Source of the DNA: a virus | Lineage: Duplodnaviria; Caudoviricetes | Direction: 5' to 3' (one strand) | DNA: 64,000 bases | Virus record (IMG/VR): IMGVR_UViG_3300048926_000317 | Location: 1 to 64,000 of that record | In this document: positions 2,813 through 62,599 of the stretch, one piece after another | Layout: every line of letters starts with the position of its first letter | Position numbering within the stretch: position 1 is the first letter of the stretch | Notes under the pieces: generated by a model | Database searches by the model: none | Told to the model about the DNA's origin: nothing | Seen by the model: the letters and a program-made list of their open reading frames with translations, nothing else | Program-made: the position numbers and the translations under genes

Positions 2813-5800
2813 TTATAGAAAAGATTTAATTATTTCTGTTGAAGCAGATGTAATATAGATAGATTCACTTGTCATTTTTTCTAAAGTAATTTCCATCCAC
2901 TTACCTCTTATTGGATCGCCATCTGGCCTATATCCACCTACGTATTTTTTAATAGCAAACGCATATTGATCGATTGACAATCCTATAACATTTGATAAAG
3001 TTAATGAATCTTTATCAATATTTAAAATTTCATACTCAATATTTGAATTTTGCACCATTAAAAAATCTCCTACACTAATATCATTATCAAATGATCTACT
3101 AAATTTTAAAATATTAGCATTGATTTCTTGAATTACTCCTAAGCCCACCGATGTATTATATCCTAAAACATTTCTAAAACAATCTGTATAATAAAAACTT
3201 TCTTTCTTTTGATATAAATTTTCACTAATTTGGCTCTCAGTATAATTTGTTCTTATTTTAGTATTCCATGGAGTATTACTTTGTAGAAACATAGCTTTAA
3301 ATACTTTATCACTATCAATTTCAGGATTTACAACATAGACAACTTTTACATTCATTGTTCCTTGCCCTGCAAAATTACTGTAACTTTCTGTTACTTCATT
3401 TTGATAAACTATTCCTTTATACGAAGCGAATGGCTTTCCATTCATACTAAATAAGAAATCCGATTTATAAGTATAATAATTTACAAAGCCTTGTGTTAAC
3501 AATGAGAATGCAATAGATTTTTCATTATTTAAACTTACTACATATTCTCCATGTGCATCATCATAAACTCCCTGAAATGAATCATATTGTTCTAAAACTT
3601 CAACACCTTCTTTATGAAATCCGCTTCTTGGGGCATTTAGTTCTGTAATTTCAAAGCCTTGTTTTAATAAAAATCGCGATCTGTTTTTATCTACTGCCAT
3701 TATAGCGTTTCCTGATTTAACAACACTTTCTGGATTATAAGAAATTCCATATTCATAAGGTAATACTTTATATCCGCCTAAAACTTTATCGCTTAATGCT
3801 ACCGTTTCTATCCCTTGCATATCTGCTATAATAGATTTTTCATAGAATACATCAATAAATTTATTTGTTAAACAAGAAGTTATATTACCATCTAAAGAAA
3901 TTAATCTTTGTATTTCACCATAATTGATTGGTAAACTAATCCAATTTACTAAAGCATTATTAAATTCGGAAAGATTATTAATCCCTAAATCATAATTGTA
4001 TATTCCTGAATAAGTAATATCAGTCTTTCTATGAACCTGTTTGTATCCTTTTATTTCAACTGCGTTTGGTCTGAAATCATATTTTAATTTTTTAGCATTG
4101 AATAAATCTTTAATTTTATAACTTTCTACTCCATTCCCCCATACATAACCATTATGAAAGCCTGTATTAAAATATCCATCTGGCTCAGCTCCTATATGCT
4201 GCCCATTTTGTATTAAAAATGTATTTGGTGTTTCAAAATAAAAGTCGCTTAAATTTTCTTCTTCTCTAGTTCGAAATATAATAGGCTTATTCCCTCTAGT
4301 TAATACTGTTTCGGTTCTAACTTTTACTACAGCCCTTTCATCTCTATTCCCATAATTAACTGCCCAATCATATATCCATCCACCGGTTGCTCTTACTAAA
4401 TCAGGATATTTATCATTAGTTAGTATTTTAATTTCATTTCCGTTCTCTTCTATCTTTACATATGGGCTATCAAAATTATCTAATAAGAAAAGATATATAT
4501 TATCATATTGTCGAGTAGCATACATCTCTTTTGAAATAGTAACTGTTCCCGATATTTCAATTGCATCTTCTCCACGACCTTTTTTATCTCGCCCATATGT
4601 TAAATCTACAGACAACTTTATAATATCACCTTCTCTAATTGCTGAATAATCACTTTTATATAAAGTCCCTCTATTTTCATAAGAACTATAGAAATTACCA
4701 TCATAGGTTCCGGTGTAGCCACTTGTAGCATCATAACGTCTAGGATTAGTAGAGTTGGGTTCAGCATCAATTACAGCCCAATATTTATTGTGAGATTTAT
4801 AAACATTTTGATTGTTATATGTTTCTATAAGAAAAGTAGAATCAACTTCTATCTCAGCGTATAATCCTTTAATTGAAACTCCGTCCGGAACATCCATTTG
4901 TTTTACATCAATTACCTTATACTCTTTCAAAATAGTTTCTAAAGCATCAACACGATATAAAACATCTCCTTTTTTTACTCTTTGCACATTATCTCCCGAT
5001 AAATATAAATAAACTTTTACTCCAATTTTTCTAATAAGAGTAATATATAAGGTTTCATATGTTAAATCTTGTGAGTTTACTACAAATTTAAATTTTGTAG
5101 CCCATGTTGGAGGGGGATGATTTAGTTTTGCCTTGATAGCATTCACACTAAATCTTTTATCGAAAGGAACTAATATCTCATTTTGCTCTTGATTTTGATT
5201 AACTAATACTGTTGTACTTACATTATAATCGTCAAAATATACTATTCCTATTTTATAAGCATATAAGGATACTACTGTCTCATTATTATTTAACACTGGC
5301 GTTGTATTATCAAGCCTTAGTTCCATATTAATTTTAGAAGCTAATCCTAAGTCATATCCTTCTTTATAATTACCAAAGAAAACTCTATTGCCGGCAACAT
5401 CTTGTGCCTTTGGATAAGTTGGAACATTATTATAAATTAGTTTTGCTTCATCATTTGGAAGCACTTTATAGTTATTTGAATATGTATAAATAATCTCCGG
5501 AAGTAAAATATTATTCCCATAATTATTATTATCGGCTTTATTGAATGAATAGATTAAATATGTAGCAACACTATTATGTTCTCTAGCATAAACTTCAATA
5601 TCAGTAACATCTTTCCCACCTGAGTAAACTAAAAGCTTTACAGCATTAGTCTTATTTACCATAGCAAGATTTTCTCTTTCTGCATTTATTGCAAATTGAT
5701 TTACATCTTTTGTTTGAAATGCTACTTTTGAAAAAAATGATAACGAAGAGTAATCTCCATCTTTATATTTAAATCTATATGCGAAACTTACAAATTTATT

Positions 5801-53061: not shown

Positions 53062-53946
53062 ATGGATAATATACAGCTATATAATGAAGACAATTTAGAA
53101 GTAATGAAAAGACTTCCTGATGAAAGTATTGATGTGATCTGCATTGATCCGCCTTACTTGTATTTAAAAAATCAGAAGCTTGAAAGACCTTTTGATGAGC
53201 TTAAATTCTTTTCAGAGTGCAAAAGGCTTTTAACGAAAAACGGATTTATTGTGATGTTCGGGCGTGGTGAAAGTTTCTATCGTTGGAATACTATTTTATC
53301 TGATTTGAAATTCACATTTAAAGAGGAAATCATTTGGAATAAACGAAGACTTTCATCATTTGCTACATCTGTCGCTCGGAAGCATGAATCTATCTCAATC
53401 TATTGCAAGGGTAAAGGAAAAATTAATAGGGTCAAAATTGATTTGGTTGAGAAATATGAATTTGAGCCGAAAAAAATATTAGAGACTATTAACAGAATTA
53501 AAACCACATTTGGCAATAGGCGTACTTTTGATCTGTTAGAAAAATATTATAAAGATGGCTTTAAAAAGTTTGAAGATAATGTTCCCGGATGGGGAGTGAC
53601 AAGATCAAAATCATCAGCGAAGCATATTAATAGAACGGTTCAGTTTGCTGCAAGTTTAGAAGAGGGTGTTACGGAACAATCGATTATAGAAATAACAGGT
53701 GTTCATTATGGGACTATTCACCCAACACAAAAACCAGTACGTCTTTTAGAGCGTCTTTTAGCGTTGGTAATTCCAAAAGATAAACCGTGTGAAGAAATTG
53801 TCGTCGCTGATTTTTTTGCTGGCTCAATGTCTTGTATGGAAGCTGTACACAATATGGGAATACGAGGAATAGCAACCGAAATAGACAAAGAATATTTCGA
53901 GGGTGGAAAAGAAAGAATAGAAAAACTTAAAAACAAATTATTCTAA
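53062..53946 (+). CDS. N6-adenine/N4-cytosine DNA methyltransferase (beta class)
   Basis: Motif IV DPPY near the N-terminus, HPTQKP, and motif I DFFAGS near the C-terminus. Confidence 0.92.
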   Translation: MDNIQLYNEDNLEVMKRLPDESIDVICIDPPYLYLKNQKLERPFDELKFFSECKRLLTKNGFIVMFGRGESFYRWNTILSDLKFTFKEEIIWNKRRLSSFATSVARKHESISIYCKGKGKINRVKIDLVEKYEFEPKKILETINRIKTTFGNRRTFDLLEKYYKDGFKKFEDNVPGWGVTRSKSSAKHINRTVQFAASLEEGVTEQSIIEITGVHYGTIHPTQKPVRLLERLLALVIPKDKPCEEIVVADFFAGSMSCMEAVHNMGIRGIATEIDKEYFEGGKERIEKLKNKLF

Positions 53947-54099: not shown

Positions 54100-55492
54100 A
54101 TGAAACAACTAGAATTAAACTTAAATAAAAGACTTCTTATTGTGGAAAGCCTTTCTAATGTGGGAGTTGAAAAGAAAGAATTAATCAAATCATTAGAGGA
54201 TAGATTTGATTGTAAACTAGAACTATTAGGCTTAGGCTCCGAACTTACTGAGGAAATAGCGAAAGCTTTAGTTACTGAATATGCTTACGGTTATTATAAA
54301 AATTACAATACATCATTTTGTGGTGGTAGACCCAAAACATCATTAGACTTTAAAACCTCTTTAGAATCTTTCATTTCAGCAATAGAAGCGCAAAGTTATT
54401 ATTGGGGTGAGAATCCACATATGAATAAAGATTCAAGATTTAATACTAATAGACCTGTATGTTTTTTAGGCACAAATGATTGTAGGAATATTATTAAAGA
54501 AAAATATTGTCAATGCTATAGTTATAGAGAAGCCGAATCCAAAACCTTCAACCCAGAGAAAACTTTAATATTTGAAATACTTTAACCTATGAAAACAAAA
54601 GAAGAACTTTTAAAAATATATTTGGCTTATTTACCGTATGAGTTGGAAGTAACGTTGTCTGATGAAGGGCGATATAATTTAGATAGCGAATACCCAAATG
54701 AGCACACTTATAAAAAAGGAATTATAACTGAATTTTCTTTTTCTACAGGTGAATTCGGTTACGGCGAATTTCAAGTATCAAAGAATTACTATTTTTCTAT
54801 AAACGACCTATCGGAAGTTAAACCTATTCTATACGACCTATCTTACTTAACCAAAGAGATTGAGCATGAGGGTAATATAATCAAGCCAATCGAATATATT
54901 TCAACATCTAATGCCAATAAAAAACAAATATTATATAGATACGGAAAAGGCTTATCTATGGATACCCTCAAACAATGGCAATTTGAAAGGCTTTTACAAT
55001 TACATCTTAATGTTTTTAATTTAGATGAATCAGAATACATAAACAAAGCAACACTAAACCTTACAAGTTAAAACAAACAAGATTATGGAAGCAAACGAAT
55101 TAAGAATTGGAAATTATGTAAATGTTCCACGAGAAGATCAATCACCTTTTAAAATAGATGGGTTTGATTTCTTAAATTCAGATGGAGGCAAAATAGAAAG
55201 TGAAGTAAAAATAGATGGTAAAAAACTTCATCCACTGACTTGGTATTTAAGTGATTTGTCGCCCATCGAATTAACAGAAGAATGGTTATTGAAAATGGAA
55301 TTTTCATGGAAAAATATTCCTGAAAGATATATGCTAGGTTCTTGGAGTACATTAAGAGTATGTAGAGATTTAACGATAGAATATAAAGATTCTTACTTAG
55401 TTAATGTAAAATTTGTCCACCAATTACAGAATTTATATTTCGCTCTTACAGGTGAAGAGCTAACAATTAAAACAAACAACAATGGAGAATAG
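54100..55492 (+). CDS. Three hypothetical proteins, paralogues of 49279-49785, 50541-50954 and 25982-26440
   Basis: Shared motifs ESFISAIE, EAESKT, KPxxxxLS.LT and ELRxGN...LQNL.F..TG.EL. Confidence 0.75.
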
Positions 55493-55961
55493 ATTAATAT
55501 CACCCAACGATAATTTACAGACACCTGAATATATTTTTAAATCTTTAGGTTTAATTGACTTAGATCCGTGTGCAGGTGAAAAAACTGAAATAGGTACTCG
55601 TAACATTTGGGATGGGCGTGGTGAAGATGGTTTAAATTATGAATGGAAAGGTTTTGTTTATTGTAATCCGCCTTTCTCTCAAAAAGAATTATGGATTAAA
55701 AAAATGATTGATCACAACAATGGAATTTTATTATTACCAGAAAGGGGTTCTGCTCCTTGGTTTGGACCACTAGCAGAAGCTTCGGGAAAATACTTTGTAA
55801 TGGGAAAGAAAATTAATTTCATTGGAGGAACTTCTTCTAATAACGTTGGATCTGTACTTTTCCCATTCGGTGAAGAAGCTGTTAATAGGATATTAAAAAG
55901 TGGTTTACCTGGACATTTCGTAACTGTTGAATGGTTTAAGTCTCGAGGTCAAAACAAATAG
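55482..55961 (+). CDS. Phage N6-adenine DNA methyltransferase (Dam-like)
   Basis: QTPEY, IDLDPCA and VYCNPPFS motifs. Confidence 0.85.
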   Translation: MENRLISPNDNLQTPEYIFKSLGLIDLDPCAGEKTEIGTRNIWDGRGEDGLNYEWKGFVYCNPPFSQKELWIKKMIDHNNGILLLPERGSAPWFGPLAEASGKYFVMGKKINFIGGTSSNNVGSVLFPFGEEAVNRILKSGLPGHFVTVEWFKSRGQNK

Positions 55962-58282: not shown

Positions 58283-59143
58283 ATGGCAAAGCAAGAAATA
58301 CAAAATATAAATACGCAAATTGAAAAGCCAAAAACTCTTGCATCGTTATTGCAAAGTGAAATGGTTAAAAAGAGATTAGAAGATATTCTGGGAAAAAGGT
58401 CTTCTACATTCGCTACATCGGTAATTCAAATTGCCAACAGTAATGACTTACTAAAGAAAGCCGACCCGCAATCAATCCTAAACTCGGCATTATTAGCTAC
58501 TACTTTAGAGTTACCTTTAAATAATTCACTTGGATTTGCCTACATTGTACCATTCAACAATAAACAAAAAGACGGTTCATTCAAGGTGGAGGCACAATTC
58601 CAGCTCGGAGCTAAGGGCTTGCAACAGTTAGCGGTACGAAGTGGGCAGTATAAAGATTTGTATGCAAAGGCGGTTTATGAAGGTCAGGTAGTTGAAGATG
58701 ATTCATTTTTAGGATACCACTTCGAATGGAAAAATAAAACTTCTGATATAGTTATTGGTTACGCCTCCTATTTCAAGCTTACATCTGGATTTGAAAGTAT
58801 TTTCTATATGTCAGTTCAAGAAATCACTGATCACGCTAAGAAATATTCTCAGACTTTTAAAAGATATGGATCAGGACTTTGGAAAGATGACTTTGAAAAA
58901 ATGGCAAAGAAAACTGTTTTAAAGTTATTGCTTAATTCAGGAAAAGCTCCTTTATCAGTTGAAATGCAAAATGCAGTAACCGCAGACCAGGCAGTTATTA
59001 AAGAATATAACGACGACAACACAATCGATGTCGATTATGTAGATGGGACAGATATTGAACCTACCGGAGATGAAAAGAAAGAAGATCTCAAAGAGATTAT
59101 TGTAGAAGGCAAAATAGAAAACCCAATTAAAGACATGCCGTAA
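58283..59143 (+). CDS. recT: RecT-family single-strand annealing recombinase
   Basis: DPQSILNSALLATTLELPLNNSLGFAYIVPF, AQFQLGAKGLQQLAVRSGQY, W..DFEKMAKKTVLK. Confidence 0.93.
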   Translation: MAKQEIQNINTQIEKPKTLASLLQSEMVKKRLEDILGKRSSTFATSVIQIANSNDLLKKADPQSILNSALLATTLELPLNNSLGFAYIVPFNNKQKDGSFKVEAQFQLGAKGLQQLAVRSGQYKDLYAKAVYEGQVVEDDSFLGYHFEWKNKTSDIVIGYASYFKLTSGFESIFYMSVQEITDHAKKYSQTFKRYGSGLWKDDFEKMAKKTVLKLLLNSGKAPLSVEMQNAVTADQAVIKEYNDDNTIDVDYVDGTDIEPTGDEKKEDLKEIIVEGKIENPIKDMP

Positions 59144-59161
59144 CTTAAAAATAATAATATT

Positions 59162-59365
59162 ATGCTATACGAAGTAAATCAAGCTAAAAGCTTTTTAATT
59201 GAAAAATTTGGATCAATTGAAAATGTAAAACCGGGGATATATGCTATTCCAACATCAACATCTAAAGGCGATGCTTTCATGAGAGTGGTTATTAATGAAG
59301 AAATGGGAATGAGCGGATTTGATCTTTGGCTAAATGAAGAATTAACGGAAACGTGGTATGTCTGA
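59162..59365 (+). CDS. Small hypothetical protein between recT and the nuclease-FtsK gene
   Basis: 67 aa; its stop overlaps the next start. Confidence 0.65.
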   Translation: MLYEVNQAKSFLIEKFGSIENVKPGIYAIPTSTSKGDAFMRVVINEEMGMSGFDLWLNEELTETWYV

Positions 59366-61346
59366 ATACAAATCATACACGCCCGAACAGCTTCAAGAAT
59401 TAGATTCACTATTCCTTATTTCAACACTTAGCTATTCTAAGGTTTCACAATGGACACGCAACCAGAAAGCCTTTGAAATGCTATACGTCTACGGTTATAG
59501 ACAGAAAAACTCTTCTACAACCGTAGCTGGCCAAGCCTATCACTATGCTTTAGAAATGTATTTTAAAAACAAAAAAGAAGGGATAGAACTGTCAATTGTT
59601 GATTTGGAAACTTTAGCTTTTAATTACATTGATGAGCAGCCGGCAAGTGAATGGAAAATACAAAAGACTACACCCACAATCGAGGAATGCAAGTTAAAAG
59701 CTAATGATGTAACAGTAAAACTTATTGGGAACTTTTTTAGAGAAATTGGTGTTTACCTAAATGAAATTGAAGAGATTTTAGAAGTTGAATTATTTTTTAG
59801 TGAATTTCTAACAATTAATGGTGTAGATATTCCAATTAGATTTAATGGAAAAATTGACTTAATTGCTAGAACAAAAGACGGAAAAATAGTTGGCATAGAT
59901 CACAAATCAAAAGCCACATACACCGATGAAAAAGAATTAGTATTAACTTCTGGAAAACAAAGTTGTGTTTATGTTAAAGCTTATGAATCAATGAAAGGAA
60001 TTCTGTTAGATGAATTTTGGTTTGCAGAAAATAAACATTCAGCCAACAAAGATAAATCTTCACAGATACAGATTTCAAAAATAGAAATTACTAAAGATGT
60101 TTTAAAACTATACGAAGCATATCTATATACACCATTAAAATCTTTATTAATTGCAGTTTCTTCACCCGATTACGACTACCTAATCAATGATGCCGACAAC
60201 TTTGTAGACATAGCTGAAATTTATGCTTTTGACGCCAAGACGAGGCTCGGAGAGATTGATTCAGACTTTAATATCGAAGATACAAAGCTTGATCTAATCG
60301 AAAAGAGAACCAAGAAAATTAAAGACGCATCTGCCACAGCAATAAACCCTACAGTAATTAAAACATTCATTAAAAACGCATCAAAATTTATTCAATACGA
60401 CATGAGCGACAAAACCCAAGAACAGAAAATAGAACACGTACTAAGATCTTTCGGAATGCAAGTTTCCGTGGCAAAAATTTTTGATGGATTTAGTTCAGAC
60501 ACTTATCTATTAGAAATTGGTGCAGGAGTAAAAGTTGGAGCTGTACAGAAGTTTAAGCTTGATATTGCAAACCAATTAAATGTTGCCAATGTAAGAATTC
60601 CTACAGATTTAACAGTATATGAAGGCAAGTCTTATTTACAGATTGAAATATCAAAGAAAAGAGAAAGAGATTTAATATGGGATATTTCTGAATTAAAAGG
60701 AATGAAGATTCCTTTAGGGAAAGATAATATGGGGAATATTATTTATTGGGATTTTAACTCTAATTCTGCAGTTCATCAATTAGTATGCGCAAGTACAGGA
60801 GCGGGCAAATCGGTTTACTTAAAAAGTATTTTACATTACGCTTTAGAGGCAGGTGTAAAAGAAATACATTTGGCAGATCCCAAATTTGAATTTGAATACA
60901 TGAAGCAGTACGGAGTAAATGTTTATAATGAAATTGAAGACATTGAGGAAGCTATGCGAATGCTAGTTGAAAAAATGGATAATAAAGTAAGAAATAAAGA
61001 TACTTCAAAAGTACTAATTGCATTTGATGAATTTGCGGACGCATTGGCCGCTGCAGGTAAAAAAAGCGATTTAGATCATAACTTGAAAAGGATACTACAA
61101 AAAGGACGATCTTCTGGATTTAGAGTGATAGCAGCAACCCAAAGAGCATCCGTAAAAGTTATCGATGGCGACGCAAAAGTAAATTTTTCAATACTTTGTT
61201 GTCTACGAGTGCCAAAAGCTATTGACAGTAAGGTGGTGCTAGGAGAAGAGGGAGCGGAGCTTCTTTCTGGTTCAGGAGATTGTTTAATTTCTTCACCTGA
61301 CTATTTAGGATTACAAAGATTCCAAGCATTTTATAAACCAGATTAA
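59358..61346 (+). CDS. Fusion of a PD-(D/E)XK (RecB/Cas4-like) nuclease with an FtsK/SpoIIIE motor
   Basis: N-terminal LSYS, GQAYH, EVE, GKIDLI and DHKS. C-terminal FtsK alpha domain, Walker A ASTGAGKS, Walker B IAFDEFAD, QKGRSSG, ATQR and GAELLSGSGD. No TM or gamma domain. Confidence 0.88.
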   Translation: MSEYKSYTPEQLQELDSLFLISTLSYSKVSQWTRNQKAFEMLYVYGYRQKNSSTTVAGQAYHYALEMYFKNKKEGIELSIVDLETLAFNYIDEQPASEWKIQKTTPTIEECKLKANDVTVKLIGNFFREIGVYLNEIEEILEVELFFSEFLTINGVDIPIRFNGKIDLIARTKDGKIVGIDHKSKATYTDEKELVLTSGKQSCVYVKAYESMKGILLDEFWFAENKHSANKDKSSQIQISKIEITKDVLKLYEAYLYTPLKSLLIAVSSPDYDYLINDADNFVDIAEIYAFDAKTRLGEIDSDFNIEDTKLDLIEKRTKKIKDASATAINPTVIKTFIKNASKFIQYDMSDKTQEQKIEHVLRSFGMQVSVAKIFDGFSSDTYLLEIGAGVKVGAVQKFKLDIANQLNVANVRIPTDLTVYEGKSYLQIEISKKRERDLIWDISELKGMKIPLGKDNMGNIIYWDFNSNSAVHQLVCASTGAGKSVYLKSILHYALEAGVKEIHLADPKFEFEYMKQYGVNVYNEIEDIEEAMRMLVEKMDNKVRNKDTSKVLIAFDEFADALAAAGKKSDLDHNLKRILQKGRSSGFRVIAATQRASVKVIDGDAKVNFSILCCLRVPKAIDSKVVLGEEGAELLSGSGDCLISSPDYLGLQRFQAFYKPD

Positions 61347-61354
61347 AAATAATT

Positions 61355-61901
61355 ATGAGACGATCAGGAAAAACAACAAGAATAATAGATAATGCAGTAC
61401 AACAACTGTTTGAAGGGAAAACATTATTATTTGCAAAAAAATATTATTTAAATAAGGTTGATTATTATAGACAAGTTAAATTGTTTTTTAATACTGACTA
61501 TACTTTTATAGTTGATGATGATCCACGTTTTAATGACGTATCGCAAAGGAAATTGTTTGATAAATTTTTAAATAGAATTAAAAGTGAACATTTTCTAAAA
61601 TTAATAAATATTAAAACTACGGAAGATGAAAAAGGATGGATAGTAAATCTTGAAAATTTTGAAAGAATAATATAATAATATGGACTACCAAGGAAAACTA
61701 TACGGCAAAGTCGGAAATACATACTTCGAGACAGGAAGAGATTCTAATGATTGGGACAAATTAGAATCTGACAACAGAGAAATGAGACAGATTTTAAAAG
61801 ACATTACCCAGGAATTTCAGGCTATGAAGATTTTAAATGGCCTGAGAAAAGCTGCAGTAATTGAAAAAGCAGATCAATTTTTAAAAAGGACTGAACGATG
61901 A
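61355..61901 (+). CDS. Two hypothetical proteins (first begins RRSGKTT)
   Basis: ORF track. Confidence 0.65.
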
Positions 61902-62599
61902 AAAAAATACTTGTAGCGTGTGAAGAAAGCCAGGCTGTAACTATAGAATTTAGAAAATTAGGGTTTGAGGCTTATTCATGTGATCTATTGCCGTGCTCAG
62001 GCGGGCATCCTGAATGGCATATTCAATCAGATGTTTTGAATGTTATAAAAATAATGCCGGGTAGTTATGTTTTGACTAATAGCAATAATAAAGTTTATGG
62101 AGATTGGGATTTAATGATTGGACATCCTGAATGTACAAGATTGACAGTTACAGCAAATAAATGGTATAAGCCTGAATATGCGGATCGTTTCCCGACAATC
62201 CATGAAGACAGGGAAAAAGCGATTGATTTTTTCATGAAATTAATTAATGCTGATATTCCACACATTGCAATAGAAAATCCAATTGGAATAATGAGTACCC
62301 GTTACAGAAAGCCCGATCAAATTATACAACCTTATCATTTTGGTGATACCGAACGCAAATCAACTTGTTTATGGCTCAAAAATTTACCAAAATTAATACA
62401 TACGAATGTGGTAGAGCCTGAAATAATTTATCATAAATCGGGAAGGACTGACGGTAAATTACACTTTGAAACAATGAAGCTTCCAAAAGAAGAAAGAAGA
62501 AAAGCGAGAAGCGTAACATTTCCTGGAATTGCAAGAGCAATGGCTGAACAATGGGGAAAATATATTTTAAAAGGGAAAATATCAAAAACATTATTCTAA
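61898..62599 (+). CDS. Phage C5-cytosine DNA methyltransferase-like protein
   Basis: ILVACEES, AYSCDLL, HPECT (PC-like motif), IAIENPIG, KSTCLWLKNLP, RSVTFPGIARAMAEQWG. Confidence 0.75.
   Translation: MKKILVACEESQAVTIEFRKLGFEAYSCDLLPCSGGHPEWHIQSDVLNVIKIMPGSYVLTNSNNKVYGDWDLMIGHPECTRLTVTANKWYKPEYADRFPTIHEDREKAIDFFMKLINADIPHIAIENPIGIMSTRYRKPDQIIQPYHFGDTERKSTCLWLKNLPKLIHTNVVEPEIIYHKSGRTDGKLHFETMKLPKEERRKARSVTFPGIARAMAEQWGKYILKGKISKTLF

Follow-up and report, generated by a model that had tools for sequence, protein, structure and literature searches.

The window examined here, the whole 64 kb stretch of DNA that was analysed, is the first part of the 87,529-bp virus record IMGVR_UViG_3300048926_000317 of IMG/VR. 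The record has direct terminal repeats, belongs to a Bacteroidota phage and includes genes for a large terminase, a portal and structural proteins, together with a crAss-type muzzle domain, a polyvalent protein and several DNA methyltransferases. Towards the right-hand end of the window the plus strand carries, one after the other, recT, an open reading frame (ORF) of 67 amino acids (aa) and a gene for a protein of 662 aa (Table 1), the arrangement on which the original prediction, made from the letters of the DNA alone, was built. The product of recT is assigned to the RecT family of single-strand annealing proteins, since the Pfam match (PF03837, 1.9e-39) spans positions 2-192 of the 198 in the profile and PHROGs also calls the 286-aa protein a RecT-like annealase. 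The 662-aa protein is a RecB-type PD-(D/E)XK nuclease joined in a single chain to an FtsK alpha/beta motor, and PHROGs calls it both an exonuclease and an FtsK-like protein.

In the N-terminal half of this fusion protein, Pfam places PDDEXK_1 (PF12705) at aa 23-212 with an E-value of 6.6e-12, and the motif set of RecB-type nucleases, E...D...D/ExK followed by QxxxY, is complete: E144, D167 within GKIDLI, D181-H182-K183 within IDHKS, and Q201...Y205. The RecB/Cas4-like nuclease that had been proposed from GKIDLI and DHKS is therefore borne out by the domain match as well. According to Foldseek, the modelled nuclease half folds like the nuclease domains of Dna2, of the Cas4-family protein ACE1 and of AdnAB, and it also resembles the stand-alone RecB/Cas4-like exonucleases of phages, which are 260-320 aa long. 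Cas4 proper was considered as an identity and rejected, as the nuclease half lacks the conserved cysteine set: in the alignments of the family (A1 and A6) there is no invariant or nearly invariant cysteine that could form a Cas4-type four-cysteine Fe-S cluster. A Pfam scan of the 115 ORFs of the phage shows the fusion to be its sole recognisable exonuclease-type nuclease and its sole PDDEXK_1 protein; neither the YqaJ nor the RecE family is among the matches listed, which represent 25 of 26 families.

The C-terminal half is an FtsK motor by every comparison made. Pfam finds FtsK_alpha (PF17854) at aa 351-431 (3.4e-9) and FtsK_SpoIIIE (PF01580, 1.4e-10), the family profile matches E. coli FtsK in the PDB at 8.6e-37 from the alpha domain through the end of beta, and Foldseek aligns the model with FtsK motors at an E-value of about 1e-23, a target TM-score of 0.64-0.68 and 24-28% identity. 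The motor motifs, namely Walker A (ASTGAGKS, 478-485), Walker B (FDE, with D557 and E558), QKGR584...R589 and ATQR (593-596), align with the equivalent residues of FtsK, so that the Walker motifs and ATQR first read from the letters now have profile and fold matches behind them. The earlier observation that the membrane and gamma domains are missing also holds: the highest Kyte-Doolittle mean over 19 residues is 1.24, with no membrane segment anywhere in the 662-aa protein, and Pfam detects no Ftsk_gamma in the chain, which terminates at the beta domain. An orthologue of cellular FtsK acting in chromosome segregation was rejected on these grounds, both the N-terminal membrane domain and the C-terminal gamma winged-helix being absent.

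Structure prediction, which had been suggested together with profile searches as a check on both halves, agrees with the Pfam domains. The AlphaFold2 model, built from 29 relatives, has a mean predicted local distance difference test score (pLDDT) of 86 and consists of two well-folded halves separated by a disordered linker at aa 346-351; because its predicted template modelling score (pTM) is only 0.51, the orientation of the halves relative to each other is undefined. The first glycine of Walker A is indeed replaced by alanine (A478), which had been raised as a doubt about ATPase activity. The same alanine is rare in the family, being present in only 3 of 230 members, and the classical P-loop pattern [AG]xxxxGK[ST] (PROSITE PS00017) permits alanine at this position; judged by the motif, the concern would be a minor one. 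Between Walker B and QKGR (columns ~575-617 of alignment A1), most family members also carry some 20-45 additional residues, which are absent from the window protein and several others in that alignment, including its closest relatives; extra sequence after Walker B is present in cellular FtsK too.

Table 1. Features of the recT and nuclease-FtsK locus, in nucleotide positions of the 64 kb window.
Feature	Position (nt)	Strand	Evidence or remark
recT, 286-aa RecT-family single-strand annealing protein	58283..59143	+	Pfam RecT 1.9e-39; phrog_148 1.4e-67
RecT C-terminal tail, aa 262-286 (GDEKKEDLK...NPIKDMP)	59066..59140	+	EKKxxLK box, then terminal [LM]P
67-aa ORF between recT and the fusion gene	59162..59365	+	8-nt overlap with the start of the fusion
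662-aa nuclease-FtsK fusion protein (P0001)	59358..61346	+	Pfam, PHROGs, profile, fold, conservation
RecB-type PD-(D/E)XK nuclease domain, aa 1-345	59358..60392	+	Pfam PDDEXK_1; fold matches
Flexible linker, aa 346-351	60393..60410	+	sole segment of the AlphaFold2 model with pLDDT <50
FtsK alpha domain, aa 352-440	60411..60677	+	Pfam FtsK_alpha 3.4e-9; alignment with E. coli and P. aeruginosa FtsK
FtsK beta (RecA-like) ATPase domain, aa 441-662	60678..61343	+	PDB profile match; Foldseek
Walker A, aa 478-485	60789-60812	+	in FtsK beta domain
Walker B, D557-E558	61026-61031	+	in FtsK beta domain

The fusion belongs to a large family. A word-seeded search returned 1,598 matches. The best 120 are without exception full-length relatives, with a coverage of 99-100% and an identity of 51-95%, and almost all of them show the same three Pfam domains, under source annotations that read only 'DNA translocase FtsK' or 'PD-(D/E)XK nuclease family protein'. 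Bacterial genomes contributed 255 stretches with a relative and IMG/VR contigs another 205. The genomes include those of Chryseobacterium, Flavobacterium, Tenacibaculum, Chitinophaga, Bacteroides, Prevotella, Parabacteroides, Muribaculaceae, Dysgonomonas and Paludibacter, and, at 39% identity, one of Puniceicoccaceae; integrases and S24 repressors nearby make prophage settings evident. A chimeric assembly, which would have undone the original prediction, can be set aside, as the same fused architecture recurs in more than 120 independently assembled relatives and in the genome and IMG/VR stretches. Split or stand-alone forms of the nuclease half amount to 18 short matches, mostly on short contigs, and stand-alone versions of the family's nuclease are essentially fragments. 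A profile of the nuclease half finds a distant clade of the same fused architecture and, after it, ordinary stand-alone PDDEXK_1 proteins of 250-330 aa. Among 50,697 GenBank phage records there is no full-length relative, and tblastn matched the motor half only, at 25-29% identity.

Conservation was examined in 230 distinct full-length sequences. In the nuclease, D167, D181, H182, K183, Q201 and Y205 are invariant and E144 is kept in all but one member (229/230); in the motor, G483, K484, D557, E558, Q581, R589 and Q595 are invariant, and R584 and R596 are each kept in 229. Pairwise identity is comparable among the three domains (57%, 61% and 66%). The invariance of catalytic residues in both halves indicates, at the level of sequence, that both activities are under purifying selection. 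One member of 967 aa (P0142) carries an intein with an HNH endonuclease inside the FtsK ATPase domain (Intein_splicing and HNH_3, aa 552-758), and a similar intein-type insertion is possible in another of 984 aa (P0241).

The link between fusion and annealase suggested by the window extends to the relatives. Of 142 loci with a full-length fusion, 141 have another gene, at least 100 aa long, that stops no more than 400 nucleotides (nt) upstream of it, and the two most often overlap by 4 nt (ATGA); the product of this upstream gene is a recognised annealase or recombinase in 62 loci and has a predicted Rad52/Red-beta-like fold in 68 more. In the window and across relatives, then, an annealase-type gene adjoins a PD-(D/E)XK nuclease gene in the same orientation. 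The upstream genes sort into ten BLAST clusters: a family with no Pfam match that PHROGs lists as phrog_3657, 'unknown function' (68 loci), a RecT-like family, phrog_561 (20), Sak4-like AAA_24 proteins (16), RecT (14), Erf (5), Rad52/Erf-like (4) and RecT/Bet-like proteins (3), two clusters of unassigned family (8 and 2 loci), and an HNH homing endonuclease that represents an insertion (1 locus). Profile-profile comparison found no relationship among these clusters except between two RecT groups. The insertion lies in one IMG/VR phage, where an HNH/NUMOD4 homing endonuclease gene (L121:4477-5001) separates the fusion from the presumed annealase gene (237 aa, 3764-4477).

The largest of these clusters is a probable annealase of the Rad52 superfamily, as far as its predicted structure can tell. 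Its model (pLDDT 84) gave weak top Foldseek matches to RAD52, Red-beta, Sak and Mgm101, and in an exhaustive structural scan RAD52 ranked first (Z 8.0, 131 residues aligned), with Mgm101 at Z 6.5, Sak at 6.3 and the N-terminal domain of Red-beta at 5.2. The C-terminal domain of Red-beta in turn matches residues 183-243 of the model (Z 6.4 and 5.9), and it is because two separate domains both point to Red-beta that we regard the assignment as probable. A gene of this family takes the place of recT in the closest relative phage, whose fusion is 85% identical to that of the window, and the annealase slot has therefore been swapped even among near relatives while the fusion was retained. Such exchange of partners around a constant nuclease is classical behaviour for annealase/exonuclease modules. 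The 67-aa ORF has no match in Pfam or PHROGs and no homologue in any fetched locus, and its position is empty of any gene in most relatives. Downstream, genes for NinG/Rap and DUF1064 are frequent, which fits a recombination module; the downstream genes are not a conserved set, the largest cluster being DUF4494 (39 of 139 loci).

What these upstream proteins have in common is their C-terminus. The RecT of the window ends in GDEKKEDLKEIIVEGKIENPIKDMP, and in the upstream proteins an (E/D)(E/Q)KKxxL(K/R) box sits 10-25 residues ahead of the C-terminus. When 71 non-redundant upstream proteins were compared with 1,390 other ORFs of the same loci, an [LM]P ending was found in 53 of the partners versus 6 of the background ORFs (0.4%), and an [LM][PLMA] ending in 68 versus 30 (2.2%), an enrichment of the tail in upstream partners with a Fisher p of 3e-74. 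The terminal pattern runs across nine unrelated clusters, and profile-profile comparison detected no feature besides the tail that the partner families share. A by-product of gene overlap was rejected as an explanation, the tail being present also where the genes stand apart, as in the window and in the closest relative.

RecT proteins that occur away from the fusion served as controls. Among the 55 closest IMG/VR homologues with room downstream but no fusion there (43-70% identity), only one ends in LP, and the downstream partners are YqaJ, metallo-beta-lactamase (MBL)-fold, DUF3799 or unknown proteins. In 401 sampled Bacteroidota genomes, none of the 12 that bear a RecT shows the tail and none has its RecT adjoining a fusion. 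The RecT of the window and its closest fusion-less counterpart, from another phage, are 70% identical up to residue 267, and beyond that point their tails are unrelated. The lack of the tail in the control proteins argues that, across the sequences compared, it goes with the fusion, and not with the family of the annealase or the phylum of the host. We propose that the tail is a putative docking peptide for the fusion protein.

Other RecT proteins have terminal patterns of their own. Several of those that lie away from the fusion in the sampled Bacteroidota (L247-L258) have acidic-aromatic ends (...DDDEPEF, ...PNDVPF, ...EPDPGF, ...ARAPF) that resemble the C-terminal tail of bacterial single-stranded DNA-binding protein (SSB) and may represent a different docking code. 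Another group of homologues, from IMG/VR (L226-L241), ends in ...GE(A/V)V(N/K/H)MFGD; in L226 the next gene after RecT encodes an MBL-fold (Lactamase_B_2) protein, and the rest of the group has an equal-sized and equally spaced gene. This group suggests that annealase tails are generally matched to the partner nuclease.

Given also its place next to the annealase, we consider it reasonably probable that the 662-aa protein stands in for the exonuclease of a two-component recombinase of the lambda Exo/Red-beta or RecE/RecT type, rebuilt as a motor enzyme. It would then use ATP to resect DNA ends and so supply the annealase. An FtsK-like hexameric ring of alpha/beta modules would assemble on duplex DNA at a double-strand end, and ATP hydrolysis would pump the duplex past the nuclease domains, tethered via the flexible linker. 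By digesting one strand, presumably in the 5'-to-3' direction, these would expose a 3' single strand, on which the annealase (RecT in the window phage) could load as the strand emerges, after docking at the ring via its tail (EKKxxLK ... [LM]P-COOH). The fuller version of this scheme, with an FtsK-type hexameric pump, six tethered RecB-type nucleases and a portable C-terminal plug that recruits any annealase fold (RecT, Erf, Rad52/Red-beta-like or the RecA-like Sak4), is put forward more tentatively, at somewhat short of even chances.

Several points weigh against this scheme. FtsK motors travel along duplex DNA without separating its strands. Because they do not unwind DNA, the choice of the strand to be digested is unexplained, and strand selection must therefore reside in the nuclease domain itself. 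Six nuclease domains per ring would be, to our knowledge, without precedent among resection machines. In the distant clade of fused proteins, neither of the two upstream proteins examined (one a RecT, the other unknown) has the [LM]P tail, and any tail code is thus restricted to the core family; the binding partner of the tail could also be some third component found together with the fusion, and not the fusion itself. Finally, the Rad52-like assignment of the 68-locus family depends on middling structural scores (Z no higher than 8, Foldseek E-value of about 0.03).

Three other explanations were weighed, each of which explains less of the evidence than a motorised exonuclease does. The best of them, which we nevertheless consider improbable, is a machine for branch migration and resolution, in which the ring pumps the duplex arms of recombination or replication intermediates and the junction is cut by the PD-(D/E)XK domain; it would be a counterpart of RuvAB-RuvC in a single protein and would resolve concatemers before packaging. 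FtsK-type motors do move duplex without unwinding it, the matching FtsK structure is that of the protein on double-stranded DNA, the PD-(D/E)XK fold also covers junction resolvases, and the gene is located in a recombination module. Yet the nuclease half falls in the RecB/Cas4/Dna2/AdnAB exonuclease branch, with QxxxY and no resolvase match, and many relatives have separate NinG/Rap or DUF1064 genes close downstream; the slot right after the annealase is the classical one for the exonuclease, and a resolvase gives no account of a partner-specific annealase tail.

Still less likely is a weapon of host takeover or counter-defence, one of the alternatives already named in the original prediction, that would degrade host or competitor DNA or strip DNA-bound defence complexes and would adjoin the annealase only through shared early expression. 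Much of the family comes from prophages with a repressor and an integrase nearby, a setting that fits indiscriminate DNA degradation poorly, and neither the near-obligatory pairing, by 4-nt overlap, with many annealase families nor the restriction of the tail to partners of the fusion would be explained. What speaks for such a weapon is that the PHROGs category of the FtsK-like family is 'moron, auxiliary metabolic gene and host takeover', and that HerA-family rings occur with effectors in conflict systems, of which Sir2-HerA and DUF4297-HerA are weak fold matches. A passive ring clamp or scaffold that confers processivity on the exonuclease, with ATP spent on loading or regulation and not on translocation, is equally hard to credit: lambda Exo does owe its processivity to ring topology alone, and the gamma domain that directs cellular FtsK is absent, but Walker A, Walker B, QKGR...R and TQR are invariant or nearly so in the 230 members, as expected of a working motor.

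The system would be a two-component phage recombinase whose exonuclease carries a motor, and it shares its layout with known examples. In lambda Exo with Red-beta, RecE with RecT of Rac, and the phage RecB/Cas4-like pairs, an annealase gene is likewise followed by that of a PD-(D/E)XK nuclease in one operon. Annealase families are likewise exchanged freely among related phages, and partner specificity likewise appears to lie in the C-terminus of the annealase. The C-terminal domain of Red-beta binds lambda Exo (PDB 6m9k, among our structural matches), and the 68-locus family has a predicted C-terminal domain of this kind. The exonucleases of lambda Red and RecET type, however, are small and motor-less, whereas the fusion adds an FtsK alpha/beta ATPase of 310 aa, and, unlike in the known pairs, its proposed docking element is a short terminal [LM]P peptide common to unrelated annealase folds.

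The closest working analogy is archaeal HerA-NurA, in which a hexameric ATPase of the FtsK-HerA superfamily and a nuclease process ends for recombination. HerA is among the fold matches of the fusion (4d2i), although far weaker (5e-8) than FtsK proper (about 1e-23). HerA-NurA consists of two proteins and the fusion of one chain; HerA has a HAS-barrel where the fusion has the alpha domain of the FtsK branch proper, and NurA has an RNase-H-like fold in contrast to the PD-(D/E)XK fold of the fusion, so that the likeness would be an analogy of mechanism and not membership. RecBCD, AddAB, AdnAB and Dna2 likewise use an ATP motor to drive a RecB-type PD-(D/E)XK nuclease in making recombinogenic single strands, and Dna2 even has the same order, with the nuclease N-terminal and the motor C-terminal. 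By analogy, the function of the fusion would match that of RecBCD or AddAB in feeding RecA. The motors of this group, however, are monomeric, unwinding superfamily 1 (SF1) helicases, whereas that of the fusion is of the ring-forming type that translocates on duplex DNA; the fusion also differs from the group in lacking an Fe-S cluster and a Chi-type recognition module. With cellular FtsK and SpoIIIE it has in common the alpha and beta motor domains, Walker A, Walker B and QK(G/A)R...ATQR, but none of their N-terminal membrane domain, long linker and gamma domain, which reads KOPS and activates XerD. The nuclease occupies the N-terminal position instead, and the gene is phage-borne and lies in a recombination module. 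Full-text literature searches, which did not cover the 2004 FtsK-HerA survey of Iyer et al., found no description of the nuclease-FtsK fusion, of its pairing with annealases or of the tail.

Elsewhere in the early region, three DNA methyltransferase genes flank the recombination module (53062-53943, 55482-55961 and 61898-62599), and Pfam also detects N6_N4_Mtase and Dam in the phage genome. A minus-strand ORF of 2,110 aa (L002:12645-18974, genome positions 76645-82974) probably bears the ART-PolyVal domain detected in the genome and would be the polyvalent protein. The phage also encodes a DUF3127 protein (2e-25), and in a Chryseobacterium prophage another such gene follows the fusion at a distance of a few genes (L005:11299-11577); DUF3127 may be a further component of the module.

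Phage annealase/exonuclease pairs underlie recombineering, and we know of no efficient recombineering system of this kind established for the Bacteroidota, among which are major bacteria of the gut and the sea. With its presence in thousands of Bacteroidota phages, a motor-driven exonuclease suggests itself as the basis of such a tool. If our interpretation is correct, it would be the first bacterial or phage translocase of the FtsK branch used in end resection, and it would join the principle of archaeal HerA-NurA to that of lambda Red. The shared tail offers a simple hypothesis for how annealase and nuclease are matched, one that would also explain the interchange of unrelated annealases in one genomic slot. 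Should the portable plug prove true, it would amount to a universal docking code, one that would let these phages exchange annealases at will around a single resection engine.

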